From assembly GCA_002428325.1 (NCBI GenBank), contig DIVR01000077.1, positions 1 to 56,332 on the forward strand: 56,332 nt of DNA, in the 5' to 3' direction. The DNA is from a bacterium UBP4_UBA6127 (lineage in GTDB: Bacteria > UBP4 > UBA4092). The notes beneath the pieces were generated by a model, which had not been told where the DNA came from, did no database searches, and saw only the letters and a program-made list of their open reading frames with translations. The translations under genes and the position numbers were made by a program. Below, one piece after another: positions 2,856 through 52,758 of the stretch (positions are counted from its first letter, which is position 1; each line of letters opens with the position of its first letter).

Positions 2856-2876
2856 TTTTGACTGCTGTCAAAAAAC
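2856..2876. repeat. palindromic element copy a (TTTTTGACtGCTGTCAAAAAA, one mismatch)
   Basis: Seen in the sequence, 166 nt upstream of the ECF sigma start codon. Confidence 0.8.
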
Positions 2877-3022
2877 AGAAGCTGGGGGGAGCTGCCGCCT
2901 TTACCCTTTGCTGTCATTATCCATCTTTAATACGCGGGGAAAATTGTCTCTATATTTATCTTATCGGCTCATGGGAAGATATTGGAACACTGGGCGTATT
3001 AACAATAGGTAAGAGGAAAAAA

Positions 3023-3628
3023 ATGGGTTTTGAAAAAACCGAGCGGACAGATGAGGATTTAATGAAGTCTTATCTGGCAGGAGATCTGGATGCTTTTGAG
3101 CATCTGGCTCTCCGCTATGAGAAACTGTTGGTCAATTATGCCTATTCATTTCTTCGCCGCCAATCCGTAAGCGAAGATATCGTACAGGATGTCTTTATGA
3201 AACTGGTGGAAAATAAAAAGAATTATGATACCAACCGGCCTTTTCGGCCCTGGATTTATCGGATTGCCCGAAACCGGATTTATGATGAACTGCGGAAAAT
3301 CCGCCGCTGGAATATATTTCATTTCCGGACAGATACCGAACCGGAAGCTCCTCAGCAAATCGGGGAAATACCGGACCCTCTCGGCTCACCCAGGGAGACT
3401 CTAAATCAGAGTGAGCTATGTGCCAGCCTTCAAAAAGGCCTTGGGAAACTGGATACCCGGTCCCGGGACTTGCTGGTCCTAAGATATTTACAGAGGCTCC
3501 CGGTCCGGGAGGTCTCAGAAATCATGGGAATCCCCGAAGGAACCGTTCATTCGGGTACCCATCGGGCTTTAAAATTACTGGAAAAGATATTAAACCAATA
3601 TGGAATCACTGGGGAGGACCTGCCATGA
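3023..3628 (+). CDS. ECF-type RNA polymerase sigma-70 factor
   Basis: The ORF 2858-3628 is over-extended. The real start is ATG at 3023, after AAGAGGA at 3011-3017. Region 2-like segment DIVQDVFMKL..RPFRPWIYRIARNRIYD. Region 4 helix-turn-helix LPVREVSEIMGIPEGTVHSGTHRALKLL. Confidence 0.8.
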   Translation: MGFEKTERTDEDLMKSYLAGDLDAFEHLALRYEKLLVNYAYSFLRRQSVSEDIVQDVFMKLVENKKNYDTNRPFRPWIYRIARNRIYDELRKIRRWNIFHFRTDTEPEAPQQIGEIPDPLGSPRETLNQSELCASLQKGLGKLDTRSRDLLVLRYLQRLPVREVSEIMGIPEGTVHSGTHRALKLLEKILNQYGITGEDLP

Positions 3629-4407
3629 CTGATAATACGGATAAACTGGCTACCCTTTTATCCCAAGTTACCTCCCGGGAAACTTCGCCTGAATTCCATA
3701 CCCGGTTAATGAAGAAAATTCATCAAGCCGAAAGCCTGGCAACCCTCGGTACTACCCTGGGAGCTGTCTATCTGGAACCCAAAAAAACCTCTGAACCTCG
3801 GATGGCCCAATCAGGCGAAGCATTATTCGCAGGAGACCGGATCCTGACCCGGAAGACGGGTAAAACCTATATCCTCTTCAAAGATGGGACTCAATTATGG
3901 TTAAATCAGGAATCGACTCTGGTCATTGGGGATACCCCTCGGCAACACCAGCTTCCCTTGGGGGAATTACTGGCTTTTGTTACCCGGGCTAAAACCCGTA
4001 AAGACCGGTTTATCCTGAAAACCCCCTCGGCTTTGGTGGAAGTATTAGGCACCGAATTTGATATTGCCATCACCACTGACCAGTCCAGTCTGCTGACAGT
4101 CCTCAGGGGGAGAGTCCAATTCCAGAATGACAAAGGGAGTTTACGGCTGAAATCCAAGTACCAATCCACGGCTAAACCTTCCCAAAAACCTTCCAGGCCC
4201 CAAAAGGTAAAGACTCTGGAGAAAATCCAATGGACTCAAGACTTAGCCCTCCAGGCTGCTAAAGAAGAAAATAATACCCTGCCGGAGACCCTGACCCAAC
4301 CCGAAAGGTTTAATAACACCTTCTCTCCGGGTAAGACCCTTCTAATCCTGGCATTCACCGGAATCTTGGGTTATCTCCTGGGGTACCTTTATGGAATGTG
4401 GCAATAA
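3625..4407 (+). CDS. FecR-domain anti-sigma factor with C-terminal TM anchor
   Basis: ATGA overlap with the sigma factor stop codon, suggesting translational coupling. FecR-like beta-sandwich segment GDRILTRKTGKTYILFKDGTQLWLNQESTLVIG...VEVLGTEFDI. The single TM helix LLILAFTGILGYLLGYLYGMW sits at the extreme C-terminus. Confidence 0.6.
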   Translation: MTDNTDKLATLLSQVTSRETSPEFHTRLMKKIHQAESLATLGTTLGAVYLEPKKTSEPRMAQSGEALFAGDRILTRKTGKTYILFKDGTQLWLNQESTLVIGDTPRQHQLPLGELLAFVTRAKTRKDRFILKTPSALVEVLGTEFDIAITTDQSSLLTVLRGRVQFQNDKGSLRLKSKYQSTAKPSQKPSRPQKVKTLEKIQWTQDLALQAAKEENNTLPETLTQPERFNNTFSPGKTLLILAFTGILGYLLGYLYGMWQ

Positions 4408-5483: not shown

Positions 5484-6755
5484 TTAAAACAAGGTTTTTA
5501 GAAGATGAAGCATCTTGTTATATAGCAGGCCCCGATTTTCCTTCCATAGATATTCAGGGCTGGTTTTGGCATCCCCCATTTTCCATTGATAGAAATATCT
5601 CTCATTATTCCAGTTGATGGAATAATAGACATATTGGGAATCGGGAGAAAATCTATGAAATTCAAGGAATTGGGAATCCGCCGGAAGCGGAATCTGAAGA
5701 TTTGATTTTTCGGTCAAGTCAGCGACAAACCCGGGAGAGACGTAAACATATCGGCCGTTCCTGGATAGTTCAAAATACTCAGGAGAAGATGAGACATCTT
5801 TTTCCCCTTTTTTTAAAGAGATTATATCGTCAGGTTTATTCAAGGCAGCATCCCATTGTCTCAGCAGATAATGGTCCTGGGTCTCCGTATTTTCTTTGAT
5901 TTCCCACCAAACCGGTTTGTTCAGCCAGGACTGCCTGATTATCACTGGAATAAAATCATATTTAGCCCAGGCAGCCTGAAGGTTTCTCATGGGGAAGCTC
6001 TCCAGCCGTTTCCCTTCATAATCAATTTTCAGAGTTGTCTGGATTTTTAAAAGTTCATCTCCCTCCGGCCAGGAGAAAGGGTCATACCCAGGAGAAGCCG
6101 AATCTATTGCCAGAGCCAGGATTTCCCGGGAATTCCTCAAACCAACCGATACATAATCAGGGTGGGATTGGATAGTATAAGGTTGAATAAATCCTGTTGT
6201 CCCGGACAGGAAGGTCTTTTTCCCATCCAGAGGATTCAAGGCATAAAGAGAGCCTGGATATTTTATGGAAAAGGTCCGGTTAAAAACTTTGAATCTCTCA
6301 AAAGAAGCATCTTCGGGAGGAATCGTAATCAATAAGGGTTTATTGGGGTCGATTTGAGAAAAGACCAGGACTTTATCAGACCGGGCAGGCCACCAGGCTT
6401 GATGATAGAGTTTAGTTTTCCAAAGAGACTTGTTGAAATGGCCGGTCGAATCATACAAAACAGTTTCATAATTCCGAAGTTTGAACCGGTAATAAGGGGA
6501 AAGAATTGAATCAGCGACTCCCTGGGGATACGCTTCAATATCCCGATAAGTCGCCAGGACCCAATGATGGTCCGGAGAATAATCAGCCGTAATCAATTGT
6601 CTGCCAGCCGGGGGGGGGATCCTCTGAATCATCCCATCCTCGCTAATGAGGACTATTTCATTCCCCTTCTGCCAGACAATGCCGCACACACCCTGATAAG
6701 GCAGGCAAGCCATCAGGCCGGCTGCTAATACCATGAGAAATAAAAATCTTCTCAT
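5484..6755 (-). CDS. hypothetical secreted protein (signal peptide; beta-propeller-like)
   Basis: 423-aa ORF. N-terminus MRRFLFLMVLAAGLMA. Rich in W, Y and D, resembling beta-propeller proteins. Confidence 0.45.
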   Translation of the reverse strand: MRRFLFLMVLAAGLMACLPYQGVCGIVWQKGNEIVLISEDGMIQRIPPPAGRQLITADYSPDHHWVLATYRDIEAYPQGVADSILSPYYRFKLRNYETVLYDSTGHFNKSLWKTKLYHQAWWPARSDKVLVFSQIDPNKPLLITIPPEDASFERFKVFNRTFSIKYPGSLYALNPLDGKKTFLSGTTGFIQPYTIQSHPDYVSVGLRNSREILALAIDSASPGYDPFSWPEGDELLKIQTTLKIDYEGKRLESFPMRNLQAAWAKYDFIPVIIRQSWLNKPVWWEIKENTETQDHYLLRQWDAALNKPDDIISLKKGEKDVSSSPEYFELSRNGRYVYVSPGFVADLTEKSNLQIPLPADSQFLEFHRFSPDSQYVYYSINWNNERYFYQWKMGDAKTSPEYLWKENRGLLYNKMLHLLKTLF

Positions 6756-6900
6756 AACCCTCCTCTTTCGTCTCCCTCAAGACTTAAAAACCTTTCGGTT
6801 TATAAGGAGTTATTTCTTTAATACTTTCTCTACAACTATTAAACTACTGTAACAGACATATCAACTCGCTAACATATAACATAATTAACTTTTATCAGTT

Positions 6901-8217
6901 CTATTTTTGCTTCCAATCAACCGTTTGGCAGGAATTCGGCAAGACCTGCAAGGTAGTGGATATAATATATGGTTTTTTAATAATTTTCAACTCATGGGTC
7001 CCTTCCAGGATATGGGACACGGAAGGTTTTTTTTGGTATCCATCCAGTAATATCAAGGCATCAGAAGGGATTTCTTCCAAGACAATCCGCCCCTCTCCCC
7101 GATGGAATAACTGGCTGTTTTGAATAATATACCTTCCGGTGAAGAATAAAGATATCAATATCATCAATACGGACGGGATGGAGGCATGAGGAATTTTCAT
7201 CAGCCAGTATCCTGCCAAGAGAGTGGCGGGAAATCCATAAAGGGCAAAAACAGTCCAGACCTGAGGATTGTTATCAGGATAATGGGTCAACATCAACCCC
7301 AGGGTTCCCAGGGTTGCCAACAATAGAAGGGGTACTTCCACAGGATTCCAGGCCTTTTGCCCATGGACCAGAGGAAGCAGCAGTAACAGGGGAATGGAAA
7401 AAAGGGAAATCCGGTATTGGAAATAAAGGATATTCCGCCAATAGGCCTTTCCCAAATAGGTATAATCCTCAGGCCTTCCCGGCTGGGGATGGAAACTCAT
7501 CCAATGGATATTCTCAAAGAAATCTCCTGAACCCCAGTTGAGCCAGGTAATTCCCACCATCAGAACAGCCAGAGGAATCAATCCCCACAGCCAGGTTTTT
7601 ATTTCATCCGTATGATGGCCCTTCAACCACCAGGCAAGGACCAGCACCGGAAAGTAAAACCCTACCTGCAGATGGCACCAGGCAGCCAGGCTGTAAGCCA
7701 AAGCCGGAGCCAGAGGAGAGTATTTCCCCTCACAATACCCAAACAGGTAATAAAAAAACATGGCGCTGGCCGCAATCACCAGGGCATAGGTTTCCAGAAA
7801 TCCATAAAATAGAACCGTGAACCCGGAACTCATAACCAAGCCAAAAGGGATCCACCCTTTGACTCCCCACCGTTCGCAGATTCGATAGAGGTAATACACA
7901 AAGATACTGCCTGCCAGACAGGCCACAAAATGCATGGCATATCGGCCATCCCAGCCCAGGAGATAACCGCCCGTCTTGTAACTCAGTTGATATAGAAAAA
8001 AGGAAAGCATCCTTCTTTTTCGAAACCAGACATCTCCCTCGACTTCTCTCAACCAGAGGTCAGCACTGCCTTCCCCTAATTGCACTGAACGGAAAAACCA
8101 GAAAACCAGGAAAAACACCCCGGACAGCAGCCAAGGTAAATATATTTCAATCCTGGAATTTCCAGAAAATGAAGAGAATTGAGATTGTTTCGGCAATCGG
8201 CTCATAGTCGGCAACAT
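6901..8217 (-). CDS. polytopic integral membrane protein, possibly GT-C-fold glycosyltransferase (DUF2723/PMT-like)
   Basis: 438 aa with at least 10 predicted TM helices. Acidic first-loop motif REVEGD. The family assignment is tentative. Confidence 0.3.
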   Translation of the reverse strand: MLPTMSRLPKQSQFSSFSGNSRIEIYLPWLLSGVFFLVFWFFRSVQLGEGSADLWLREVEGDVWFRKRRMLSFFLYQLSYKTGGYLLGWDGRYAMHFVACLAGSIFVYYLYRICERWGVKGWIPFGLVMSSGFTVLFYGFLETYALVIAASAMFFYYLFGYCEGKYSPLAPALAYSLAAWCHLQVGFYFPVLVLAWWLKGHHTDEIKTWLWGLIPLAVLMVGITWLNWGSGDFFENIHWMSFHPQPGRPEDYTYLGKAYWRNILYFQYRISLFSIPLLLLLPLVHGQKAWNPVEVPLLLLATLGTLGLMLTHYPDNNPQVWTVFALYGFPATLLAGYWLMKIPHASIPSVLMILISLFFTGRYIIQNSQLFHRGEGRIVLEEIPSDALILLDGYQKKPSVSHILEGTHELKIIKKPYIISTTLQVLPNSCQTVDWKQK

Positions 8218-8261: not shown

Positions 8262-8296
8262 AAAAAACCCGGATAAGAAATACTCTCATCCGGGTG
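8262..8296 (-). terminator. rho-independent terminator after pilQ
   Basis: Minus-strand RNA is cccggaugagaguauuucuuauccggguuuuuuua: a 7-bp stem followed by a U-tract. A TTGACA hexamer follows it on the minus strand. Confidence 0.6.
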
Positions 8297-8320: not shown

Positions 8321-10303
8321 CTATTTCTTCATATCCGCCTCAGTGGGGGGAAGCACTAAATCATTCTTGGTTTTGGGAACCTGGATATTGCCGGAAGTCT
8401 TTTTCGGACTGGCAGAAATGGGCCGGGCTGTGGTATCCACACTTTCGATAACACCTGTCGGCCGGATATTTTCAGGGTTGGCATTTTCCACGGCATCCTC
8501 TTGTTTTGCCTTTTCTTCCATCAACATATCTACCAGTTCTTTTTTATTTTTTTTCTGGACCGAATCCGTGGTGGCATTACTGAGAGCTTTATAGAAATCA
8601 GGATAAAGCTGTTCAGATTCAATCCGTTTTCCGGTAACCATGTGGGGCGTCAGGAACAAAATCAAGTTTCGTTTATTATTGGATTTTGACCGGCTGCCAA
8701 AAAGGAGATGTCCGATAAAAGGAATATCTTCCAAAAGAGGAATCCCGGAACCGGATTCGGTTTTGTTTTTGGTCACCAAACCACCGATGACCACTGTCTC
8801 GTGGTTATGGACCTGGATATAAGTGCTGGCTTTGGCAGTAGTCGTCTTTACCCCGGAAAACTGGTTGCCAGTCCCTTCATTTAAGGTAACCGGGTCAGCG
8901 CTGGTATTCTCCAAAGATACTTTCATATCAATAACCCCATCGACATTGATGTGGGGTTTAACGGTCAGTTTCAACCCATATTCCTGGGAAGTCTGAGAAT
9001 AGTATTGCTGCTGATAACTCGAGCCTGACGCACTGGTAACCGGTTGAGTGTATAAGGTACTGTAAGGTTGGGTACCACCGATGGAGATCTGCCCTTCCTC
9101 ATCATTTTTTACCATGATTCGCGGACTGGCCAATAATTCAGTATTCGCTCCTAATTTACTGGCAGCCTTGGCCGTAGCACTAAAGTTTAAACTAAGCATT
9201 GAAGTCGAAGAATTGAAATAATCTCTAACTCCTTGTTGGAAATTATTTTTAAAAATATCGATGACAGCAGTGCTGGAAATGGAATACCCGGCGCCATAAG
9301 ACCAATCAATACCAAGGTCCAGGGATTTCTGGTAATCCATATCGACAATTTCAGCCTCGATATAAACCAACCGGTCAGGCTGGTCGAGGGCTTCAATGAA
9401 ACTCCGAATTTTGTCCATATGGCTGGGAATATCATCCACAATCACCCGGCTGTTTCGTTCATCAATCTTAATAATCCCTTTTTTGGTAACAATATCTTTG
9501 ATGGCCGCTTCAATATCCTTCGGTTTGGCATATTTCACTTCAAAGACTTCCAGTTGGGTTTCCACATCCAGGGATTCCACCAGCTTAGCGATTTTTTCAA
9601 CGGCGGAAGGGACATCCGTTACAATCAGGGAATTGGTCCGTTCATCGACCTGAATATCCCCTTTAGCAGTTTTAAGTTTATCCGCCTGGGTTTTGATATC
9701 CGAAGCAATGGCATATTTTATCGGGAAGATTTCAACTTCAATCAATACATCCAAAGTCTGGACAATCTGTTCAATCCGGGAAACGGATTCTGGAGTATCG
9801 GTTACCTGCAGGAGGTTGGTACGGTCATCCCGGATGATTTTTCCAGCTGTGGTCAGCATGGGGGTAATGGCGTTTTGCACATCCTGGGCATTGGTGTTGA
9901 GAATATAGAAGGATTTGGTAATGACCTGATCTTTCATATATTCATCATATTCAGCCTTGGTCATAATGGTGATGGTGTTTTCCACTCGAACCCAGACCCA
10001 TCCATTGGATTTGGTAATACTGTCCAGGGCTTGTTCCAGATTGGAATTATTCAGGGAAATATTGATATTCCCCGTGGCTCCTTTACTGGCAACCACTCCC
10101 ACCCCAAAGGTATCCCCCAATAGAGATAATACCTGGTTCAGGGGAGTATCGGTCAGGGACCCGGTAAAAGTCTTCTCCCCACCGGCCTGAGCATAAGCGG
10201 GAAAACTCCCGAAATTACTCAAGCAGAGCATGCTGGCAATTAATAATGCCATGAAAAGCCATTGGGCTGTTCCGGCCATAGTCAGTCTTTTAAATATTTT
10301 CAT
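8321..10303 (-). CDS. pilQ: type IV pilus / type II secretion secretin (PilQ/GspD family)
   Basis: 660 aa with a signal peptide, repeated N-domains and a C-terminal secretin domain ...GGLVTKNKTESGSGIPLLEDIPFIGHLLFGSRSKSNNKRNLILFLTPHMV. Confidence 0.85.
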   Translation of the reverse strand: MKIFKRLTMAGTAQWLFMALLIASMLCLSNFGSFPAYAQAGGEKTFTGSLTDTPLNQVLSLLGDTFGVGVVASKGATGNINISLNNSNLEQALDSITKSNGWVWVRVENTITIMTKAEYDEYMKDQVITKSFYILNTNAQDVQNAITPMLTTAGKIIRDDRTNLLQVTDTPESVSRIEQIVQTLDVLIEVEIFPIKYAIASDIKTQADKLKTAKGDIQVDERTNSLIVTDVPSAVEKIAKLVESLDVETQLEVFEVKYAKPKDIEAAIKDIVTKKGIIKIDERNSRVIVDDIPSHMDKIRSFIEALDQPDRLVYIEAEIVDMDYQKSLDLGIDWSYGAGYSISSTAVIDIFKNNFQQGVRDYFNSSTSMLSLNFSATAKAASKLGANTELLASPRIMVKNDEEGQISIGGTQPYSTLYTQPVTSASGSSYQQQYYSQTSQEYGLKLTVKPHINVDGVIDMKVSLENTSADPVTLNEGTGNQFSGVKTTTAKASTYIQVHNHETVVIGGLVTKNKTESGSGIPLLEDIPFIGHLLFGSRSKSNNKRNLILFLTPHMVTGKRIESEQLYPDFYKALSNATTDSVQKKNKKELVDMLMEEKAKQEDAVENANPENIRPTGVIESVDTTARPISASPKKTSGNIQVPKTKNDLVLPPTEADMKK

Positions 10304-10389
10304 TGAAAGAAACCTCCGTCCCGGGCAATCAATCTATCATAGGACCTGTAACATGTAATTTAGCAGTTTCATGGCTGGGATGATCCTTT

Positions 10390-11163
10390 CTAAGGAGTCA
10401 TCTCCATACTCATGGTGCCATATTCAAATACTACTTTATTTTGTAAAACCTGTTTCACGATGACATGCTGAAGGATATCGCCTTCTTTAACTTTATTATT
10501 TTTACCGTCACCGGTCAGGATAAAAGCTGTTTTTAAAGCCGGGATAGAACCTTTCAGTTTCCAGCCCCGGGTCAGTTCTTCAATCGGTTTCAGGGAGAAC
10601 CATTTAGATTCATCCGGATTATTTGCCAAAGCGACCTGAACTCGGTTCTGCATGGGTTCCACTGTTATTAGTTTCACTCCATCCAATACTTCCCCTACCC
10701 GAAGGTTATGGGAAAGAGCCCGGGTGTCCTGAACAATACATTCATCTTTGCCGATAATCTCCCATATCAGCCAATTCCGAGTCCGAACTTCAACCGTTTC
10801 ACGCGGCGGAGGAGGCGGCGGGGGAGGCGCAATCAACAGCCTGAACATATCCCGGCTGCCAATCCCTTTATAGGTTTCACCGCTGGCCAGGAAAGCTGTA
10901 GTATCAGAAGAAAATTGATGAAATTCATAAGGGGACTCATCTGCTACCATCGGTTTGGAAGCGGTCATGATCCCCAGGGGAATCCCGGTGGTGCTTTTCC
11001 CCAGCAAAGAAGCCGTATCCGCAGCCAGAGTCGCCGCAGTAACAGTCTTTTTGCGTTTTTTAGGTTTAATATCGCCGGAAGGGGTCGGCCAAAAATAATA
11101 ACCAGCCACTACCAATATAGCCACCAGGGCAAGGATTATGGTTGTCAGACGGTATTTCATCAT
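10390..11163 (-). CDS. PilP-like inner-membrane pilus assembly protein (TM helix, Pro8 linker, C-terminal beta domain)
   Basis: N-terminal TM helix, an eight-proline linker, then a beta-rich C-terminal domain. It sits between pilO and pilQ. Confidence 0.45.
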   Translation of the reverse strand: MMKYRLTTIILALVAILVVAGYYFWPTPSGDIKPKKRKKTVTAATLAADTASLLGKSTTGIPLGIMTASKPMVADESPYEFHQFSSDTTAFLASGETYKGIGSRDMFRLLIAPPPPPPPPRETVEVRTRNWLIWEIIGKDECIVQDTRALSHNLRVGEVLDGVKLITVEPMQNRVQVALANNPDESKWFSLKPIEELTRGWKLKGSIPALKTAFILTGDGKNNKVKEGDILQHVIVKQVLQNKVVFEYGTMSMEMTP

Positions 11164-11187
11164 CTTAGGTTATCCTGCCGAGGAGCC

Positions 11188-11763
11188 CTATTGGGGACCT
11201 CCGGCCTCCTCTTCTTTAGAAATGACTTTCCCGATTCGCAGGGTTGTCTGCAATATCGGATTTTGGGCTGATTTGGCTTTAGGGGTAATCTGAAGATATT
11301 CGATATAAAGGCCCCGTTCAACCATCCCCTGAAGGAATCGGCCCACAGTGGCTAAATTTCCCTCAAAGACTACTTGAATGGTATAGACCTGATAATCAGA
11401 CCGGGAGACTTTCCGTTTCCGGACAGGGTCCATTCGGTTGAACCGGACACCGGTTTCCCTCTGTAATTCATCGGTCTGCAACAGCAGAGTGTCTTCGGCC
11501 CGTTTCTGGGGGTCTTTCAATCGGATGATTTTCTGGTATTGTTCATAATCGGCCAGAATCTTTGATTCATTTTTCAGGAGCTGATTCACTTTTTTCAATT
11601 CAGCCTGTTTATTTGCAAGCCGGGTGGAGGTCCTGCTCCATTCATCCACCAGGGGATAAATAATCCAGTTAAACAGCAAAGCGCCGGCAATCACCGCGCA
11701 GGTTGCAAAAAAGATGGTTTTTTCCCGCCGGGTCTTAAAGAGTTTATCGAGGGATGAAATCAT
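11188..11763 (-). CDS. pilO: type IV pilus assembly protein PilO-like
   Basis: 191 aa with an N-terminal TM helix, coiled coil and C-terminal domain. Its start overlaps the pilMN stop at 11763. Confidence 0.6.
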   Translation of the reverse strand: MISSLDKLFKTRREKTIFFATCAVIAGALLFNWIIYPLVDEWSRTSTRLANKQAELKKVNQLLKNESKILADYEQYQKIIRLKDPQKRAEDTLLLQTDELQRETGVRFNRMDPVRKRKVSRSDYQVYTIQVVFEGNLATVGRFLQGMVERGLYIEYLQITPKAKSAQNPILQTTLRIGKVISKEEEAGGPQ

Positions 11764-13391
11764 TATTCTCTCCCCTCTTGGTTTTCGGCAGTACCGGTCT
11801 GGTCATCTTTCGCCGGTTTGATTTTACAAACCACATTAAATCGGACTACCTGCTTGGTTTCCATGGTATCGGTATTGGCATTCTGGATTTCTACCAGGGA
11901 GAAATGCCCGAGTTTTTCAACTTCAAACCGGAAATTAACGGCATCTTCCATACTCATGGCGACAGCGGTCAAAGTCAGGACCCGGTTACGTTCATAAACT
12001 ACTTTTTCCAGAGCCACCTGGCCGGGGATTAATTCACAATCCGTCAATCCGCTAAGGGTTTCCACACTGACATCGGTTTGAGAGACCATCTTCCGGATGG
12101 ATTCCAGCTGTTTCTGCATTTCCGCCAGTTTCTCGGTTTTAGGTTTTTTCATAACCAGGTCCCGGGATATCTTATTGATTTCATCCTGCATCCCGGCATA
12201 TTGCTGGTAGCCATAGACTCCGGCAGCAATAAAAAGAGCCGCCACCCCGATCCCAATTTGCCCAAAGAACCATTGGCGTTTCCGTTGAATCCGTTTTCTC
12301 AGGATTTCCGGGGGAAGCAGATTAACCGCCTCACCTCGGTCGGCATCCATCGCCCTTAAGGCAAGCCCGAAAGCTGTATTTAATTCAGGAAGAAGCTCAA
12401 CCGAGCCTCCACTATGTTCGGAAGTCACATAACTCACCGGTTTAACCGGTATCCCTAATTCTTTTTCCAGGTAATCTTTCAGGGTCGGAATCCGGGAAAG
12501 TCCACCGCTGAGGACAATCGAATCGATATGGCTGATACCGAATTCGTTAGAGAAATAATCAATCGACCGTTTAATTTCATTATCGACCCGTTCCTGCCAA
12601 CTGGCAACGGTATCCCGGAGGGTCTCTTTTTCATATGTACCCAACCCATAATCAGGTTGAGTAAAATCCATTTTCAGCAACATCTGCCGGGATTCTTCCT
12701 CAGAGACATTTAATCCTCTCTGGAAAGCCCTCATCAGCTGGGACCCCCCAATCGGGGTGGCACGGGTATATTTCAAAGCCTGGTTCTGCACCAGGAAAAG
12801 TTCCATGGAAGTGAATCCAAAATCCATTAACAGGAAGGTTTTATTGGGTTCTTTGAAAGCCGCCGAACGGGCCACTTTCAAACCCCGCATCAGGGCAAGA
12901 GCGCTGGAATCAATAGCATAAGGTTCCAGGTGCAAAGCTCTCAGCAGGTTTAACTGCTCTTCCACCGCATCCCGCCGGCAGACAGCCATCAGGACTTCGG
13001 ACCCGCCCAAATGGCTGGACCCGATCAATTCAAAATCAACAATATCTTCATCGGTATAGAAGGGCACATACTTAGCCGCTTCGAACCGGATCATCTGTTC
13101 TACTTCAGAAATGGAATTGGTAGGAAGTTTGATATAGCGGACGACAGCCGCCTGCTTGGAAACAGAAGTTACCAGGTGGGCGGGATGAATCTTCATCTCC
13201 GCCAGAAGCTTCTTAATCGCTTCAGCAGTCGGAGTTTTCTCCGGAGACGAAAAATCCACCACACCGACGGGAGCCTGAATCTCTATCATTCCCTGCGAAA
13301 TGATTTTGTAAGAATCTCCACGCCCGCGGCGTATCTGGACCAGCTTTACGCTGTCCGATCCAATATCTAATCCTGTAACAATAGGGGCCAT
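11763..13391 (-). CDS. PilM-PilN fusion protein (actin-like ATPase-fold PilM, then TM and PilN domain)
   Basis: N-terminus MAPIVTGLDIGSDSVKLVQI is PilM/FtsA-like. A central TM helix FFGQIGIGVAALFIAAGVYGY follows. The C-terminal half is PilN-like. Confidence 0.75.
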   Translation of the reverse strand: MAPIVTGLDIGSDSVKLVQIRRGRGDSYKIISQGMIEIQAPVGVVDFSSPEKTPTAEAIKKLLAEMKIHPAHLVTSVSKQAAVVRYIKLPTNSISEVEQMIRFEAAKYVPFYTDEDIVDFELIGSSHLGGSEVLMAVCRRDAVEEQLNLLRALHLEPYAIDSSALALMRGLKVARSAAFKEPNKTFLLMDFGFTSMELFLVQNQALKYTRATPIGGSQLMRAFQRGLNVSEEESRQMLLKMDFTQPDYGLGTYEKETLRDTVASWQERVDNEIKRSIDYFSNEFGISHIDSIVLSGGLSRIPTLKDYLEKELGIPVKPVSYVTSEHSGGSVELLPELNTAFGLALRAMDADRGEAVNLLPPEILRKRIQRKRQWFFGQIGIGVAALFIAAGVYGYQQYAGMQDEINKISRDLVMKKPKTEKLAEMQKQLESIRKMVSQTDVSVETLSGLTDCELIPGQVALEKVVYERNRVLTLTAVAMSMEDAVNFRFEVEKLGHFSLVEIQNANTDTMETKQVVRFNVVCKIKPAKDDQTGTAENQEGRE

Positions 13392-13558
13392 AAGCAGTTT
13401 TTAGTCTATTTTCCTAACTCATCTCAATAATTTGATTAAGAGGTAACATTATAACCTTATTTCCCTCTTTTTTCGATAAGCCCGGTTGCCAGAGGGAGAA
13501 GCTTAGCCGGTAATTTATCTATACTATCTCTTTATATAAAAGGACTACACAGCCTTGG

Positions 13559-14677
13559 TTAGAATTCCTGCCATTTCAAAATTTGGACTCGAACCCCTTC
13601 TTTAGCTCCCTTGAACTGGTTTTCCATCATTTCCATTTCCTCAGAGGTTAAGAGGGTAACGACCCATTCTCTCTTCACCAGGGCTTCCACCGTTGTTTTA
13701 GCTTTACCAATCTGGCCGGTACTCTGAATCCTGAATAAGTTGGAATCGGTACGAACTGTTCTAGAAAGCCGGGCTCCCAGCAAAGGATTTATCGGACCCA
13801 GTTCAGTTGCCACTTCTCCGGCATTGGTAAAAGGCTTATCATCCGAGGTCCCGGGTTCTCCATCCGACCCTAAAATCCTATCATTCAGGTTTTGAGCAAT
13901 GGAGATAGCATTTTCCACATCTTCATCAACCATACTTAAAATCATGGCTGTTAAGACTGGCAGTGGGGCCGTATTCACGTTTGTCATACCATCGCCTTCA
14001 ACAGTCAACAGGTCTATCAGGGAGACTTTCAAATCGGGATTACCATAAATACCCCGAGGCTCATAAAGCATTTCCGGCTTAAATCCCGGAACATTCAACA
14101 GTTCCACCGGGCTAACAAAGTCTTCATTCTTGAAATGTTCCTTGGCAAGCGTGGTATCTTTAGAACCGTAATAGAACTCCTCTTCGGTATAGGATGAATC
14201 TTGATTATAGTCACTGTCACCATCCCGATAATCGACGATGGCTGTGGCAAAATACTTAGCGTCATCCTCTTTATAGTCCAAGGCTTGGAATAAACCCTCA
14301 AACATTTTAACGGTAGCCTTGTTAATATTCATTTTACCCAGTTCATCCTGGATAACCACCGTATAAGTACCTTCCCCCAGGGGAATATCCTTATAGATTT
14401 TCTCGGTTTCCTCATTATTGGCCCAACAATCTCCAGGAGCGTCATAGATGGCATTCCGGGTTCGATGGTCTAAAATGGCATCATTCTTTAATTCCACCAA
14501 AGTACGTATCACACCGGCCCTTGCCAGGTAATAGGCTTGATGGGTATCCAATTGAGTCCTCGACATCCGGGCTTCTAATTGGAGTTCAATGGAGAAACCC
14601 AAGGCAATGACCGATAGAATCATCAATATCCAGAGGGTGGTTATCAGGATAACTCCCTGTTCTTTACCCAGCCTCAT
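13559..14677 (-). CDS. gspK: minor pseudopilin GspK-like
   Basis: 372 aa. N-terminus GVILITTLWILMILSVIALGFSIELQLEARM is typical of GspK. Confidence 0.7.
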   Translation of the reverse strand: MRLGKEQGVILITTLWILMILSVIALGFSIELQLEARMSRTQLDTHQAYYLARAGVIRTLVELKNDAILDHRTRNAIYDAPGDCWANNEETEKIYKDIPLGEGTYTVVIQDELGKMNINKATVKMFEGLFQALDYKEDDAKYFATAIVDYRDGDSDYNQDSSYTEEEFYYGSKDTTLAKEHFKNEDFVSPVELLNVPGFKPEMLYEPRGIYGNPDLKVSLIDLLTVEGDGMTNVNTAPLPVLTAMILSMVDEDVENAISIAQNLNDRILGSDGEPGTSDDKPFTNAGEVATELGPINPLLGARLSRTVRTDSNLFRIQSTGQIGKAKTTVEALVKREWVVTLLTSEEMEMMENQFKGAKEGVRVQILKWQEF

Positions 14678-15498
14678 TCGTTGGTTGCCTCTTTTACAAT
14701 GCTGGGCTTCGTGGAAGGAATCTCACAAAACCAGTCAAATTCTTCCCCTTCAGCTTTGGGGTTATCCGGGATTTCCAAGGTCATTTTGATGCGGACAGCA
14801 TCCGGCAAGTTATCAGGATACACACGGATGGCATCTTTCCGCTCCGGATCAAAAAGGGAGTCTTCCTCCTCAGCATCCTTGGGAGTCCGGTTGTCATCCA
14901 GCCGGGAATCCCATTTAGCAGCCCAAAACAGCTGCCCTGCTTTCTTATAGCCATAACTCAGCTCACAGGACTTGATGCCATGAACCAGGTCCTCATCCTC
15001 GGCAATGGTGCCTGTTTGTTCATCCACTTTCCGGTTTAACTTCTTATCTTCATAAGTATAAGTTATTTTAAAGATTCCCTGCCGTAGGACTTTCAACTTT
15101 CCCAGGGGAACGGACCCATAACTATAAAAAGTCATGGTGGTGGCATTCCCTACAAAATCATATTCAGCCTGAGAATAAGTAGTTTCATCCTGAATCCAGC
15201 TGGTATCTGTAGAATAATCAATATTTTGGGTGGTGTCCTTTTGGTAAGGTGCAATATCATAAGAAGTCTCATCAATCCCCAAGACACTTCTTAGGTCCCG
15301 CATTGTGATAGAGTGGAGGATTCGGGCCTCCTGAGAGAGTTCCCGCTGGCTGGTGCCTGCCTTATAAAGACCCAAAGCTGTCCTAAAGGTGCTGTAAACC
15401 GCCCCCATTATTAAGGTAAACAAAACAGCGGCAATCAATACTTCCAGAAGGGTAAAACCACTTTGGGCGGTTGAGGACTGTCGCCTGTTAATCCACAT
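14674..15498 (-). CDS. gspJ: minor pseudopilin GspJ-like (prepilin N-terminus GFTLLEVLIAAVLF)
   Basis: Prepilin-type N-terminal methylation motif. 4-nt overlap with gspK. Confidence 0.65.
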   Translation of the reverse strand: MWINRRQSSTAQSGFTLLEVLIAAVLFTLIMGAVYSTFRTALGLYKAGTSQRELSQEARILHSITMRDLRSVLGIDETSYDIAPYQKDTTQNIDYSTDTSWIQDETTYSQAEYDFVGNATTMTFYSYGSVPLGKLKVLRQGIFKITYTYEDKKLNRKVDEQTGTIAEDEDLVHGIKSCELSYGYKKAGQLFWAAKWDSRLDDNRTPKDAEEEDSLFDPERKDAIRVYPDNLPDAVRIKMTLEIPDNPKAEGEEFDWFCEIPSTKPSIVKEATNE

Positions 15499-15940
15499 AG
15501 GTAAGCCTCGAAGTCTCGTAGGTCACCAAGGTGATAGGGGTGATTGTCTGTCCTTTTTCCTCATAACTGACCGTCAGGGTGATTGTTTCGAATTTTTCCG
15601 GCTCCATGAGGATAGAGGAATCATCTATCAGGTATTCGGAAGATTCTTCTTCAACATCATAATCCCATTTAATATCAGGGTACTTATCCCCAAAATCCCC
15701 CCGGTCGCCCTCTTTCCGGTCTTCCTCAGGGGTATTCATAATCTCAAACATTTTCTGCTGGGCCAAGGTCAAGGCTAGTTGGTATTTCTGGCTGGTTTTG
15801 ATGATCTTGGTCGAGGTGGAAAAGGCCCCCAATACAGCCATCAGCCCCACCGTCATTACCATGACCGAGACCAATACTTCCAAAAGCATGAACCCTTTGG
15901 GGTTTTGATTATTAAGTATGAAGGATTTCATTGGATTCAA
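15488..15940 (-). CDS. minor pseudopilin GspI/GspH-like (KGFMLLEVLVSVMVM)
   Basis: Prepilin-type N-terminus. Overlaps the gspJ start. First gene of the operon. Confidence 0.6.
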   Translation of the reverse strand: MNPMKSFILNNQNPKGFMLLEVLVSVMVMTVGLMAVLGAFSTSTKIIKTSQKYQLALTLAQQKMFEIMNTPEEDRKEGDRGDFGDKYPDIKWDYDVEEESSEYLIDDSSILMEPEKFETITLTVSYEEKGQTITPITLVTYETSRLTYVD

Positions 15941-16421: not shown

Positions 16422-16753
16422 GAATTGGGTTATCGTTTTTCAATTTCAGTAAAAAAAGCCTGCCCTGAAGCTCTGGCAGGCATCTAACTAGATTACCATA
16501 GTTTGTTCATAGAGATAAAAAAAAGCCCGTATGGCAGGGGGGGTTCTGAATACCCCTAAACCTGAATAGAGTCCTCTCTTTTAATACCGATAGCTCCGGT
16601 CATCTTGACCGGTTCTGTCATATTATATTTTCATTAATCAATCTCTCAAAACCCACTTTCATACCTTATTTATATCTGTTAAAGTAATCCTGTTAATTTT
16701 TAATACATTAATTTTATTATAACTAATAAGAGGTTAACTGGAGGGACTATCCA

Positions 16754-19600
16754 ATGATTTTCTGTAAGAAGCTAATCGGTTTTATCATTTTCAACCTATT
16801 ATTGACCACCTTAACCTTAAGTGAGCCATTTTCATTACCGGAGGCGAAAGCTATCCGTTGGGATGGTCCAATAACGGTGGATGGGGATTTGTCGGAAGAT
16901 GGCTGGAAACAATCAGGATTTCCTTATCATTTAAACGATTATATTTCAGGTGAGGTCCCTGCAAATCCTACTGAATTTTCCATTTTATATAATAATGACA
17001 CCTTGTATTTTGGAATAATTTGCCATGAATCCAAAATGGATAAGACTCTTGGAAGCCACACGACAGATATGGATATTATCTATTTTGATGATGATATTGA
17101 AGTTTTCATTGTGCCATGGGAATCAACTCCGGAAGGTAAATTCCATCATTTTATGTTGAATATTGCCGGAGCCAGCGCCGCTGATTCATTGTCAAATTAT
17201 GGACATCCCGAAAGAGCCGACAGCCGAATGGTTCCCTGGGAAGGGAAAGTCCGGAAATATGCCGACCGATGGACGGCTGAATTTGCCATCCCTTTAAAGG
17301 TGCTTGTCCCGGCGATGGGTAATGAATCCTTTTGGCGGTTAAATATTGGCAGAAGTAATCCCTGGACCCATCAGTTTTCCAGTTGGTCCAAAACGACGGG
17401 CAGTTTTCATGACAGTCTGCGATATGGAAAATTGACTGGTATTGATTTTAATGGGAAATTCATCGGTTTTAAGACCGCGGTATCCCCTTTGATAAACACT
17501 ATCGCAACAGCTCCGGCAGTTTTCACCTTATCCACTGCAGCTTCTAAATATAAGCCGCCTGTCCAGATTATTCCTATTCCCTATCAGGTAAATTACAATC
17601 AACCGGATTTTGTTCTTAATACCGAAACCAAAATCCTTCTGGGAGAGAAAGCTCCGGAAGATAATTTGCAAGCAATTGATGACCTGAATCAGGAGTTGAA
17701 GGAATTATTCGGTTTTGAACTTCCGGTTCAACGTGTTAATGAAAATCAGATTGGCTTGATTAAAAATGCCATTATTCTGGGAGAGCCTGGGAAAAACCCT
17801 GTTTTGGATACCCTTCTTCAAAAAGAAAAGCTGAAAATCGATGCTGCTACTCCCGGACCAGAGGGATATATCCTCAAAACTTCTCCCCATAATGTTCTGG
17901 TAGCTGGCAGTGATGATGCAGGAACTTATTATGGAATTCAATCCCTCATTCAACTGCTCTATAAATCCTCTCGAGACGGCAAAATCCATGTCAAAGGGGT
18001 GAATGCCTGGGATAAGCCGGCATTCAAAGTTAGAATGGTTCATTTCTTCATTGATAAAGATTCTCCAGTCATTCATCGAAAAATGATCGAGAAAATCTTT
18101 GCCCGATATAAATATAATAATATTCTCATTGAAGCGGAGCATGGGGTTGCCTGGAAATCCCACTCCGAAATAACCTCTAAAAACGCCCTGGACCCTGAAG
18201 AAGTTACTAAACTGGTGAAATTTGCCAAGAGACATTACCTGACAGTGACACCTTTGATTCAATCCATGGGCCATGGTGCCTGGATGTTCCGATATGGGAA
18301 TAATCTGGATTTTGCGGAGGATTCCACTCGGCCGGACGTCTATTGTCCCCTGAATCCCAAATCCTATGATTTCCTCTTTGATATTATGGATGAGGCCATT
18401 GAGGTTTTTGACCATCCTGAATATATCCATATTGGTCATGATGAACATGACAACTATAATCCTTTCCCGGTACATCCTGAATGCAAAGCAGTGGGAGATG
18501 AACAGTTGTATTACATGGATACCATCCATATCTATCATCACCTCAAATCCAAGGGGATTAAATGTATGATGTGGACAGATGAGCTGGAAGGAAAATCATT
18601 CCATCCTTATCTGAATGCTTTACCCCGGAATATCCTGATGACTACCTGGAATTACCGGGACCTTAATGAATTCAGAAGCGTAGAATTTCTCCAGAAAAAA
18701 GGTTTCCAGGTGCTGGGATGCACTGCTCATCGGCCGATGAATATTGTTAATTTCAGTAAATGGGCAGAGAACCAAAAGGCTTTGGGGATGATGTTCACGA
18801 CCTGGGCCGGGTATGGCGACAACCGTACGGTGGTTGAGCGTGAATTCAAGCAAATCATGGCCTATATTATTCAGGCTGATTATGCCTGGAATCCCAACCA
18901 TAGATTCCCGGCTGAAAATGACAAGATAGGTACTCTTCCTTATTATCCCGGGCAGATTCTTCGGGAAATCTGGTATCCTGACTCTCGCAAACCTTTCTCA
19001 CGCTCAGGATTTGCCGTTAATTTAGCCTCTTATGCCAATACGCCTCTAGTGGATTCTGATAAGAAACCGGCTTTAGCAGGTTATGGAGTAGGCAATGATT
19101 TCTCCGCTCTGGCAGCGCAGGCAAAGAATGGCAATCTGCCTTTTATGGATAATAAATATTATCAACTGTCCTTTGCCAAGGGTATTCCTGTGGGGATTAT
19201 GCTGAAAGGACCCGGTTCAGCTAAATCTTTTCCTGATAAAGTAACCCATATCAAGATTGATCAGTATGCTTCCGAACTGAATTTTCTGCATACCCTCTTG
19301 CATCCGACAAAGAAAAATTTAAAAATCGGCCTTTATCGTATTCATTATGATGATGGAACGTTCCAAGAAATCTCCCTGATAAATTTTCAAAATATCACGG
19401 CCTGGACTGATTGGGAAACTTATTTCTATGGGGATATGGCATGGATAGGGGAATTGAAATCCAACGAATCTGTCATGCTCAGAGCTTATTGTTGGGTGAA
19501 CCCTTATCCCAGCAAGAAAATCCAATCCATTGATTTTGAAAGTGTGAACGGCGTTTCTTCTCCATTATTGTTAGCTATTTCAGGGGTATCTCCCCAATAA
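16754..19600 (+). CDS. secreted GH20-like glycoside hydrolase (beta-hexosaminidase-related/DUF4838-like) with N-terminal CBM9-like domain
   Basis: 948 aa with a signal peptide. GH20 domain-2-like segment ...GYILKTSPHNVLVAGSDDAGTYYGIQSLIQLL. TIM-barrel region containing ...HIGHDEH. CBM9-like N-terminus. Confidence 0.5.
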   Translation: MIFCKKLIGFIIFNLLLTTLTLSEPFSLPEAKAIRWDGPITVDGDLSEDGWKQSGFPYHLNDYISGEVPANPTEFSILYNNDTLYFGIICHESKMDKTLGSHTTDMDIIYFDDDIEVFIVPWESTPEGKFHHFMLNIAGASAADSLSNYGHPERADSRMVPWEGKVRKYADRWTAEFAIPLKVLVPAMGNESFWRLNIGRSNPWTHQFSSWSKTTGSFHDSLRYGKLTGIDFNGKFIGFKTAVSPLINTIATAPAVFTLSTAASKYKPPVQIIPIPYQVNYNQPDFVLNTETKILLGEKAPEDNLQAIDDLNQELKELFGFELPVQRVNENQIGLIKNAIILGEPGKNPVLDTLLQKEKLKIDAATPGPEGYILKTSPHNVLVAGSDDAGTYYGIQSLIQLLYKSSRDGKIHVKGVNAWDKPAFKVRMVHFFIDKDSPVIHRKMIEKIFARYKYNNILIEAEHGVAWKSHSEITSKNALDPEEVTKLVKFAKRHYLTVTPLIQSMGHGAWMFRYGNNLDFAEDSTRPDVYCPLNPKSYDFLFDIMDEAIEVFDHPEYIHIGHDEHDNYNPFPVHPECKAVGDEQLYYMDTIHIYHHLKSKGIKCMMWTDELEGKSFHPYLNALPRNILMTTWNYRDLNEFRSVEFLQKKGFQVLGCTAHRPMNIVNFSKWAENQKALGMMFTTWAGYGDNRTVVEREFKQIMAYIIQADYAWNPNHRFPAENDKIGTLPYYPGQILREIWYPDSRKPFSRSGFAVNLASYANTPLVDSDKKPALAGYGVGNDFSALAAQAKNGNLPFMDNKYYQLSFAKGIPVGIMLKGPGSAKSFPDKVTHIKIDQYASELNFLHTLLHPTKKNLKIGLYRIHYDDGTFQEISLINFQNITAWTDWETYFYGDMAWIGELKSNESVMLRAYCWVNPYPSKKIQSIDFESVNGVSSPLLLAISGVSPQ

Positions 19601-51635: not shown

Positions 51636-52103
51636 CTAGCGGTGGCCTGCCGAGTCTTTTGGAGAGAGCTGAAAAACATCAATCAACTGGGCATCAAGGG
51701 AGAATCTTCCCGGCCCGGTCAGTAACAGGGTAACCGCCACGGTCCAATAGGCCAAAGGCAGTTCATATGAAGGCCCTTGCCCGGTACCAATCCAGGGATG
51801 TCCGGAAGGAATATGAACCATCAACAAGGCCACTGTCATGGTGGAGAGTATTCCCAGCAATGCTAAGGGAGTAACCAATCCAAAAGTGATGGCCAGCCCG
51901 CCCCCGAATTCTGATAACGCTGCCAGGAATTGGAAAAATCCCGGGACCGGAGCATCGGGGCCCATCCAGCTGAAAGGTGTCTGGATTTTCCCCCAGCCAT
52001 GCTGGACAAAAGCCAACCCTACAATCACCCGAAGCAACAACAGTCCGGTGGACTTTCGGCAATCCGGAAAACTTCCATAACTTTTCAATATCAAATTTTT
52101 CAT
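51636..52103 (-). CDS. DoxX-family membrane protein
   Basis: LLLRVIVGLAFVQHGWGKI. Start at 52103 after ggagga. Confidence 0.65.
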   Translation of the reverse strand: MKNLILKSYGSFPDCRKSTGLLLLRVIVGLAFVQHGWGKIQTPFSWMGPDAPVPGFFQFLAALSEFGGGLAITFGLVTPLALLGILSTMTVALLMVHIPSGHPWIGTGQGPSYELPLAYWTVAVTLLLTGPGRFSLDAQLIDVFQLSPKDSAGHR

Positions 52104-52221
52104 GAGAGTTCCTCCATAGTGAAGCATATCTCTATAAACATAAGTATATATCTGATAAGTTCCTTGGTAAAAGAGAGGGGCAGATGGAAGATGGTATAAT
52201 CAAATTTCATGGAGGTCTTAG

Positions 52222-52758
52222 ATGATGGATGAATCCTTAGGACGAATATTTATAGAGAATTCCCTTTTCAGGTTCAGGGCATTGAAAGACCTGGGGGAGA
52301 AGGCGATTGGAGAGTTGGATGACGGAGAGCTGACCCTGTCGCCTGATTCAGAATCCAATTCAGTGGCGGTCATCTGCCAGCATCTTCATGGGAATATGTT
52401 TTCCCGGTGGACTCAGTTTCTTACTACGGATGGAGAAAAGGAGACCCGGGACCGGGATGCTGAATTTACCCCGCCGGGCTCTCTATCCAGATCTGAATTG
52501 ATGGAACGTTGGAATGAAGGCTGGGCAGCTGTTTTTACGGCTTTGGAAACCCTGGAGCCGGTGGACCTGCTGAAAATTATCACCATCCGGGGCCAGGGTT
52601 TAACCGTAATGGATGCCATTCTTCGGCAAATCTCCCATTATGGGTATCATGTGGGACAGATTGTCTATCTGGCTAAACAGCTCAGGGGTTCCCAGTGGAA
52701 GACCCTCTCTATTCCCCGGGGAAAATCCAGGGAATACCGTCCCCAAAAAAGGGATTAA
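52222..52758 (+). CDS. DinB/YfiT-like (DinB_2) metal-dependent helix-bundle protein
   Basis: Histidines ICQHLHGNMF ... ISHYGYHVGQIVYLAK. RBS ggagg. Confidence 0.55.
   Translation: MMDESLGRIFIENSLFRFRALKDLGEKAIGELDDGELTLSPDSESNSVAVICQHLHGNMFSRWTQFLTTDGEKETRDRDAEFTPPGSLSRSELMERWNEGWAAVFTALETLEPVDLLKIITIRGQGLTVMDAILRQISHYGYHVGQIVYLAKQLRGSQWKTLSIPRGKSREYRPQKRD

Follow-up and report, generated by a model that had tools for sequence, protein, structure and literature searches.

Gene content and organization of the cassette

A cassette of seven genes, with relatives in type II secretion systems (T2SS) and type IVa pili (T4aP), was analysed in contig DIVR01000077.1 of the bacterium UBP4_UBA6127 (NCBI GenBank assembly GCA_002428325.1). 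The whole stretch of DNA that was analysed, 56,332 nt in length, is referred to here as the window. An earlier annotation made from the letters and their open reading frames (ORFs), called here the sequence-only reading, had described a pilus operon at 8321–15940 on the minus strand, in which T2SS pseudopilins were mixed with assembly proteins of type IV pili (T4P). The seven minus-strand ORFs were found at the coordinates given by that reading, and all of them were intact.

In the direction of transcription the cassette begins with three genes (I, J and K) for minor pseudopilins. These encode a GspI/PilV-like protein of 150 aa (15488–15940), a GspJ-like protein of 274 aa (14674–15498) and a GspK-type tip pseudopilin of 372 aa (13559–14677). 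After a gap of 167 nt (13392–13558), evident from the ORF spacing, follow genes for a PilM-PilN single-chain protein of 542 aa with the architecture of GspL (11763–13391), a bitopic GspM/PilO-like protein of 191 aa (11188–11763), a GspC/PilP-like connector of 257 aa (10390–11163) and a secretin of 660 aa (8321–10303). This second sub-cluster is abbreviated below as MN-O-C-D. Overlaps were observed between I and J (11 nt), between J and K (4 nt) and between the stop of the fusion gene and the start of the 191-aa gene (1 nt), while spacers of 24 nt and 86 nt separate the 257-aa gene from the 191-aa gene and from the secretin gene, respectively.

The operon is closed by an intrinsic terminator on the minus strand (8267–8295), which was detected in the terminator scan as a hairpin followed by a T-run. 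It lies 26 nt past the secretin stop and is composed of 13 stem pairs (6 G-C), a 3-nt loop and the tail TTTTTATT, and its stem was the longest among the terminator-like sites in the scan. The operon limits of the sequence-only reading, which had placed the terminator at 8262–8296, were thus confirmed. Within the 167-nt gap a promoter-like site was detected at 13476–13448 (TCGAAA-17-TATAAT). Since promoter-like sites were no more frequent in the scan than in shuffled sequence, this site is a weak lead only. Nothing was found when the window was scanned with Rfam and for tRNA.

Domain composition of the encoded proteins

The 542-aa protein unites PilM and PilN in one chain. An actin-like PilM domain (residues 1–347) is followed by the motif NLLP (357–360), a transmembrane helix (about 374–394), a coiled coil extending to about residue 435 and a ferredoxin-like domain (459–524). 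Pfam PilM_2 matched residues 7–347 (1.3e-41) and TIGR01175 (pilM) scored 176 bits against a cutoff of 133, both above their curated cutoffs, and Pfam PilN matched residues 454–524 (1.3e-4). Profile matches in the PDB were obtained to PilM of M. xanthus (3jc8, 6e-54), P. aeruginosa and T. thermophilus, and to PilN at 0.003 over residues 353–484. GspL was absent from the PDB sequence matches and from the top 50 Foldseek matches, there was no T2SSL match in Pfam, and TIGR01709 (gspL) gave E=0.007 over residues 340–509 only, which lie in the C-terminal half. A member of the GspL family (T2SSL/TIGR01709) was therefore not found in this position; the protein is GspL-like in architecture and belongs to the PilM/PilN families, with the actin-like PilM and the N-terminal INLLP motif of PilN, both T4aP traits, in the same chain.

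The AlphaFold2 (AF2) model of this protein (pLDDT 79) contained the actin-like domain, two short strands at 352–355, a long helix at 361–435 and the ferredoxin-like domain at 459–524, with the hydrophobic segment 374–394 lying inside the long helix. The best Foldseek matches were the PilM:PilN(1-12) chimera 5EOU and the PilM-PilN complex 2YCH (TM-scores of 0.80–0.82), followed by FtsA. Family matches and predicted fold both upheld the assignment as a PilM-PilN single polypeptide made in the sequence-only reading. The phmmer alignment to 5EOU crosses the junction (window protein GLALRAMDADRGEAVNLLP, chimera GLALRSFDSSGMARINLLP), so that the junction found in nature, GLALR-(8 aa)-VNLLP, is in register with the engineered one at every position. 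Four motifs (N357-L-L-P360, D9-I-G11, D190-x-G192 and G296-G297) were invariant in ten homologues of 34–87% identity. From these motifs and the model we infer that the NLLP segment docks in cis and that the PilM domain binds nucleotide.

Single-chain PilM-PilN proteins had been thought uncommon in the sequence-only reading, and this was contradicted by the survey data. When 1.84 billion cluster representatives were searched with a profile, 28,992 of them matched at E<=1e-3 and 2,512 at E<=1e-30. Among the best 150 clusters (50% identity), 126 were at least 450 aa long, 94 had an N-x-x-[P/R/K] motif ahead of a transmembrane segment, and 70 had NLLP after residue 250. Judged by these sequence matches, the PilM-PilN fusion is common in metagenomes. 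A literature search found no paper that uses the phrase 'PilM-PilN fusion' or the like for a natural protein.

Protein K is predicted from sequence to bear the GspK alpha-domain. It matched T2SSK_1st above the cutoff (32.7 bits against 26.2) and T2SSK at 5e-4, and in NCBIfam T2SS_GspK its residues 6–337 aligned with positions 1–297 of the 307 in the model (1.1e-23; 84 bits against a cutoff of 130). T2SSK_1st also matched the K orthologues of three related loci (L005, L018 and L019). Searches with hidden Markov models (HMMs) therefore supported the GspK assignment as well as those of PilM and PilN. The leader of K is ...EQG/VILITTL (the slash marks the cleavage site), in which Glu at +5 is lacking. 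Homologues of K are known to be without this Glu, and the GspK alpha-domain has about 180 aa (PMC13533445); the T2SS combination of an alpha-domain and no Glu at +5 was found in K. Neither in the window nor in the related loci L004, L005 and L018 did the cassette contain or adjoin a PilY1-like gene. A K protein without Glu at +5 and with a predicted alpha-domain, in a cassette without PilY1, fits a self-sufficient tip complex of the T2SS type (PMC13533445).

The gene for I starts with a TTG (15940), an ATG at 15931 being an alternative start, and its product has a class III signal, ...NPKG/FMLLE, with Glu at +5. In a public JGI gene call (L001, 7503–7904) the protein is 133 aa and starts at Met18, but the upstream TTG or ATG is more coherent because the Met18 start would remove the prepilin leader and the cleavage site. 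NCBIfam matches of I to PilV (3.9e-8), XpsI (2.5e-6, across nearly the entire model) and GspI (3.8e-6) were all below cutoff. Its orthologues in L004 and L005 were 50–52% identical, with G-F-x-L-L-E invariant. Protein J (leader ...QSG/FTLLE, Glu at +5) matched N_methyl above the Pfam cutoff (7.5e-7) and T2SSJ just under it (1.7e-5; residues 87–242 against model positions 3–131 of 140), and in NCBIfam gspH at 1.3e-5 and gspJ at 3.7e-4; its orthologues in L005 and L006 also gave a faint T2SSJ match. The evidence for the identity of I and J consists solely of prepilin motifs, size, gene order and sub-threshold matches. PDB sequence and profile searches with I, J and K gave no meaningful match.

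In the secretin, a signal peptide and an STN/N0 domain precede three Secretin_N domains (N1–N3) and a core at residues 387–556, and a C-terminal tail of about 100 aa extends beyond the secretin-domain match. The Pfam values were 1.3e-38 for Secretin_N in three stretches, 1.8e-37 for Secretin and 1e-7 for STN, so that the arrangement N0-N1-N2-N3 plus core of a GspD secretin was found. Residues 43–336 aligned only to N0–N3 structures of GspD (5zdh and 3ezj), and no AMIN domain was detected with Pfam. The protein was nearer to the GspD of a metagenomic T2SS operon (L013, see below), matched at 2.6e-33 over 581 aa, than to an Akkermansia-like secretin (L012), matched at 2e-9. In NCBIfam the GspD and PilQ models gave the same score (243 bits), both below cutoff (351 for the GspD model TIGR02517), and the MshL model TIGR02519 scored lower than either (133.7 bits against a cutoff of 250.2), which does not support a secretin of the MSHA type. 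Because it has N0–N3, resembles GspD and is without AMIN, the secretin is not PilQ-like; the T4aP pair of a PilQ with AMIN and a PilP lipoprotein was not found in the cassette.

The 191-aa protein is bitopic, with a transmembrane segment at residues 16–40. Its matches to T2SSM (1.6e-4; 22 bits against a cutoff of 27.8) and PilO (0.011) were below the curated cutoffs, and it aligned with M. xanthus PilO (3jc8_O) at E=0.01 over residues 15–154. Weak T2SSM matches were seen in all three of its orthologues examined, and there was no Amuc_1100 match in Pfam. In the 257-aa protein, a transmembrane helix at the N-terminus is followed by a disordered linker rich in Pro, which includes the run PPPPPPPPP, and then by a tandem of beta domains, each some 65 aa long (about 125–190 and 200–257). 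The protein gave no match by any sequence method (Pfam, NCBIfam and PDB searches), and only five non-identical homologues were found. The AF2 model was confident over residues 125–257 (pLDDT about 90), where it contained the two small beta domains, and fold comparison gave the HR domain of GspC as the nearest fold. There is no Cys lipobox. The protein is thus predicted to be membrane-anchored, not a lipoprotein, and to carry two HR domains, and the N-terminal anchor plus HR domain of a T2SS GspC was found in it.

Related loci and genomic surroundings

An identical locus was present in a JGI metagenome contig and in a Logan assembly. The same seven-gene order was found in L004/L008 (55% identity), L005/L009 (35%) and L018 (34%), and L019 (60%) begins within J at a contig end. 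In L007 (10001–14992; 55% identity) only MN-O-C-D was present, adjoining a divergent H+-pyrophosphatase gene; the absence of I-J-K from this locus suggests that the cassette consists of two separable modules. The flanking genes of the related loci differed each time, and an ATPase, platform or peptidase gene was never found within 10 kb. The cassette was kept intact at 34–87% identity in several lineages, indicating that it is under selection.

A complete, contiguous T2SS operon was detected on a metagenomic contig (L013), with the order D-E-F-G-G'-x-H-I-J-K-(528-aa PilM_2 protein)-M-N, in which the I-J-K-L-M order of the window cassette recurs. The PilM domain of the 528-aa protein was 23% identical to that of the window fusion (E=1.4e-15). 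Its position between gspK and gspM shows that PilM-type proteins fill the GspL slot of otherwise standard T2SS operons.

Among the distant homologues was also an Akkermansia-type cluster on a 383-kb metagenome contig (L012, 9375–16216). Its genes encode a 190-aa protein, a 536-aa PilM-like protein with NLLP, an Amuc_1100-domain protein, a 307-aa protein and a 905-aa TPR-secretin.

Absence of the ATPase, platform and peptidase from the operon, stated in the sequence-only reading, was borne out and extends to the scanned ORFs of the window. The main ORFs with a length of 100 aa or more yielded no T2SSE/PilB/PilT ATPase, GspF/PilC platform protein or A24 peptidase, two ORFs at 51636–52127 (163 aa) and 52222–52758 (178 aa), which are shorter than is usual for these proteins, being left out of the scan. 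The sequence-only reading had also allowed that the missing components might lie immediately beyond the window. No such gene was present in the left flank to about 25 kb, as covered by a 116-kb contig and two NCBI contigs from metagenome-assembled genomes. The genes of this flank were annotated as HEAT, RDD, endonuclease I, PNPOx, rpoB, rpoC, TPR, HAD, SGL, PMT_2 and ACT. A database look-up of the rightmost gene of the window returned no record.

The rpoB and rpoC genes lie about 7–20 kb to the left of the window (L011 1–2542; L015 5291–13976). The N-terminal 847 aa of RpoB, encoded on the adjoining contig, had close relatives at 68–92% identity. The best named relatives, Candidatus Sumerlaeota, were only about 55% identical, suggesting that the host belongs to a poorly described deep lineage. 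A diderm envelope is indicated by a lipid A acyltransferase gene in the window and by genes for BamA, Skp, LpxD and LpxC in L019.

An Smr-domain gene lies upstream of the cassette, as the sequence-only reading had it. As a member of the operon it was rejected, being near the cassette only in the close relatives L001 and L004 and absent in L005, L007 and L018. The two genes directly downstream (5484–8217), for a 438-aa membrane protein and a 423-aa secreted protein, had been proposed as accessory components. This proposal was not supported, as both genes lie past the terminator, have no family matches and are not conserved neighbours: no homologues were found in the flanks of L004, L007 and L013, and unrelated genes flank L005, L018 and L019.

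In the 330-nt gap upstream of smr (16440–16650, minus strand), a promoter-like site near consensus (TTGAGA-16-TATAAT, 16649–16622) is followed by two elements each consisting of a hairpin and a T-run. The RNA fold z-score was -2.1 and no Rfam family matched; a leader or a small RNA may be encoded here. A pair of genes for ECF sigma and FecR is located at 2858–4407 on the plus strand, about 4 kb downstream past the secretin gene. Also on the plus strand, between 44549 and 48111, a DUF5689 gene and a Lamin-tail-domain gene come after an orphan prepilin-type gene, whose product of 216 aa matched N_methyl (5.5e-10) and, weakly, GspG and PilA. The prepilin-type gene may represent a pseudopilin paralogue associated with secreted proteins. 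Divergent from smr lies a gene for a GH20 hexosaminidase of 948 aa (16754–19600, plus strand). The window encodes other glycosidases, including a GH2 enzyme (49234–51525), and an LVIVD/fn3 protein. These proteins, the neighbouring GH20 and GH2 glycosidases among them, are speculative candidates for secretion substrates.

Interpretation and comparison with known systems

The locus probably encodes one half of a type II secretion-like (type IV filament) machine, the half that does not include the motor. Read from its sequence, the cassette corresponds to GspI-J-K, equivalents of L, M and C, and D, which is T2SS order. PilM plus PilN are equivalent to GspL, PilO to GspM and PilP to the HR domain of GspC (PMC10191384, PMC4471445), and a fused PilMN beside GspI/J/K therefore amounts to a T2SS architecture. 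The mixture of T2SS and T4P parts described in the sequence-only reading was not supported, as it was nominal and arose from gene naming, the order I-J-K-L-M followed by C-D being that of T2SS. The gene assignments of that reading were correct, but its framing fails because the secretin is GspD-like and the protein called PilP-like there is nearest in fold to the HR domain of GspC.

In the proposed mechanism, a prepilin peptidase encoded elsewhere would cleave I, J and K after the conserved Gly, and the three proteins would assemble into a tip complex, its apex occupied by K, from which a short pseudopilus is initiated. Since K would supply its own last beta-strand there, no PilY1-type adhesin would be needed. 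The cytoplasmic PilM domain would bind nucleotide and its own NLLP segment in cis, and would recruit the assembly ATPase as GspL does GspE. The periplasmic PilN-like domain may pair with the GspM/PilO-like protein, and the HR domains of the 257-aa protein may bind N0 of the secretin, coupling the inner and outer membranes. The ATPase, platform, major (pseudo)pilin, GspH and peptidase would be encoded at another locus; partner genes elsewhere are expected because I, J and K need a peptidase that is absent from this one. Precedents for a T2SS with split loci exist in Legionella and Acinetobacter. The likely output of the machine would be secretion of folded exoproteins.

Several observations weigh against a secretion machine. 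The protein in the L slot is a PilM by sequence and predicted fold, and has no GspL match in Pfam or the PDB. The GspD and PilQ models tie for the secretin, and the matches of I, J and the M-slot protein are all below curated cutoffs. Absence of PilY1, together with a K protein providing the strand in cis, is also known from some competence T4aP (PMC13533445). An Akkermansia-type cluster with the same MN-O-x-secretin layout has been called pilus-like (PMC10688800). Because GspE, GspF, GspG and the peptidase were not located, the choice between secretion and a surface pilus is made from architecture alone.

The strongest competing explanation, which we consider clearly the less probable of the two but a serious one, is that the locus provides half of a true surface pilus, comprising the alignment, secretin and priming functions, either a T4aP variant or a system like Amuc_1098-1102, with PilB/PilC and with or without PilT encoded elsewhere. 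The PilM_2 and pilM matches above curated cutoffs, the kept NLLP motif of PilN, and T4aP PilM and PilM:PilN complexes as the best PDB sequence and fold matches, to the exclusion of GspL, would all be explained by such a pilus, whereas a secretin with N0–N3 and without AMIN, and a transmembrane-anchored connector nearest to the GspC HR domain instead of a PilP lipoprotein, would not. Similarly, the Akkermansia-like locus shares the MN-O-x-secretin layout and the Amuc_1101 model matches at 1e-37, but this match and those to the Amuc_1098 and MshL models are far below their cutoffs. T4aP genes are usually spread over several loci (PMC6668835); however, I-J-K lie directly upstream of the L and M equivalents, as in T2SS operons, K has the predicted GspK alpha-domain, and the minor pilins have no PilY1/PilC gene beside them.

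It is very unlikely that the cassette is a motor-less accessory, borrowing the ATPase, platform and pilins of another complete system, or a decaying remnant: although none of six related loci has a motor gene within 10 kb, none was found in the window or in the roughly 25 kb on its left, and the detachment of the I-J-K block in L007 indicates modularity, decay is argued against by seven intact ORFs, by order and length conserved at 34–87% identity and by invariant functional motifs, and motor sharing is possible but unsupported, no second system having been seen.

For a secretion-like machine, the main interest is evolutionary, in that a GspL-like protein is still recognisable as PilM plus PilN. 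It would provide a natural example of the fusion that reviews have invoked for GspL, with a junction that aligns with the chimera engineered by crystallographers. More tentatively, and with considerable doubt, this family of cassettes may represent a surviving intermediate in the transition from T4aP to T2SS, combining a GspK tip, a GspC-like connector, a GspD-type secretin and T2SS gene order with a 'GspL' that has remained a nucleotide-binding PilM, joined to PilN by an intact NLLP segment. If so, the origin of GspL by PilM-PilN fusion would become directly testable, and PilM-type L proteins would be suggested to be widespread in T2SS outside Proteobacteria. The results also illustrate how a single coherent machine can seem a hybrid when judged only by the names of its HMM matches (PilM, PilN, GspK). 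They flag a conserved seven-gene module in a deep-branching uncultured lineage, and their practical value lies in better annotation of secretion capacity in uncultured polysaccharide degraders.

Compared with known systems, the locus differs modestly from an established machine and is not a new kind of system. Like a canonical T2SS (Gsp/Pul/Xcp), it has the order I-J-K-L-M with C beside D, a putative M-like partner, a K with a predicted alpha-domain and no Glu at +5, a secretin with N0–N3, and no PilY1-like gene. The L-slot protein likewise has an actin-like domain in the cytoplasm, a single transmembrane helix and a ferredoxin-like domain in the periplasm, and the connector has the predicted HR fold with a transmembrane anchor. 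It differs from a canonical T2SS in that the L-slot protein is a PilM that keeps the DIG, DxG and GG motifs of the ATPase fold as well as NLLP and matches no GspL model, and in that the connector has two predicted HR domains and no PDZ. Furthermore, E, F, G, H and O lie outside the locus, and no S-domain or pilotin was identified in it.

With the T4aP PilMNOPQ proteins of P. aeruginosa, M. xanthus and T. thermophilus the cassette shares the PilM domain, NLLP, periplasmic domains resembling PilN and, putatively, PilO, a domain with the PilP fold and a secretin. It differs from these systems in that PilM and PilN are joined in a single chain, in that its connector is not a lipoprotein and its secretin has three N domains and is without AMIN, and in that minor pilins are adjacent, with a K of the GspK type. 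The 'type IV pili-like' cluster Amuc_1098-1102 of Akkermansia muciniphila (PMC10688800) resembles it in layout, with a long PilM-like protein followed by two small envelope proteins and a secretin, and the Amuc_1101 family model matched at 1e-37. An assignment to this cluster was not supported by the family models, as the scores were 130 bits against a cutoff of 650 for Amuc_1101 (NF045709) and 54 against 750 for Amuc_1098 (NF042912); in contrast to the Akkermansia cluster, the window has no Amuc_1100 domain in the O slot and no TPR extension of the secretin, and I-J-K are present.

The T2SS operon of L013 shares with the cassette a PilM_2-type protein of about 530 aa, located there between gspK and gspM. 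It differs in being contiguous (D-E-F-G-H-I-J-K-L-M-N), whereas the window cassette is split from its motor genes; at its junction the motif reads FNLRR, a diverged form, and, judged by position, the gene at its end is not HR-like.

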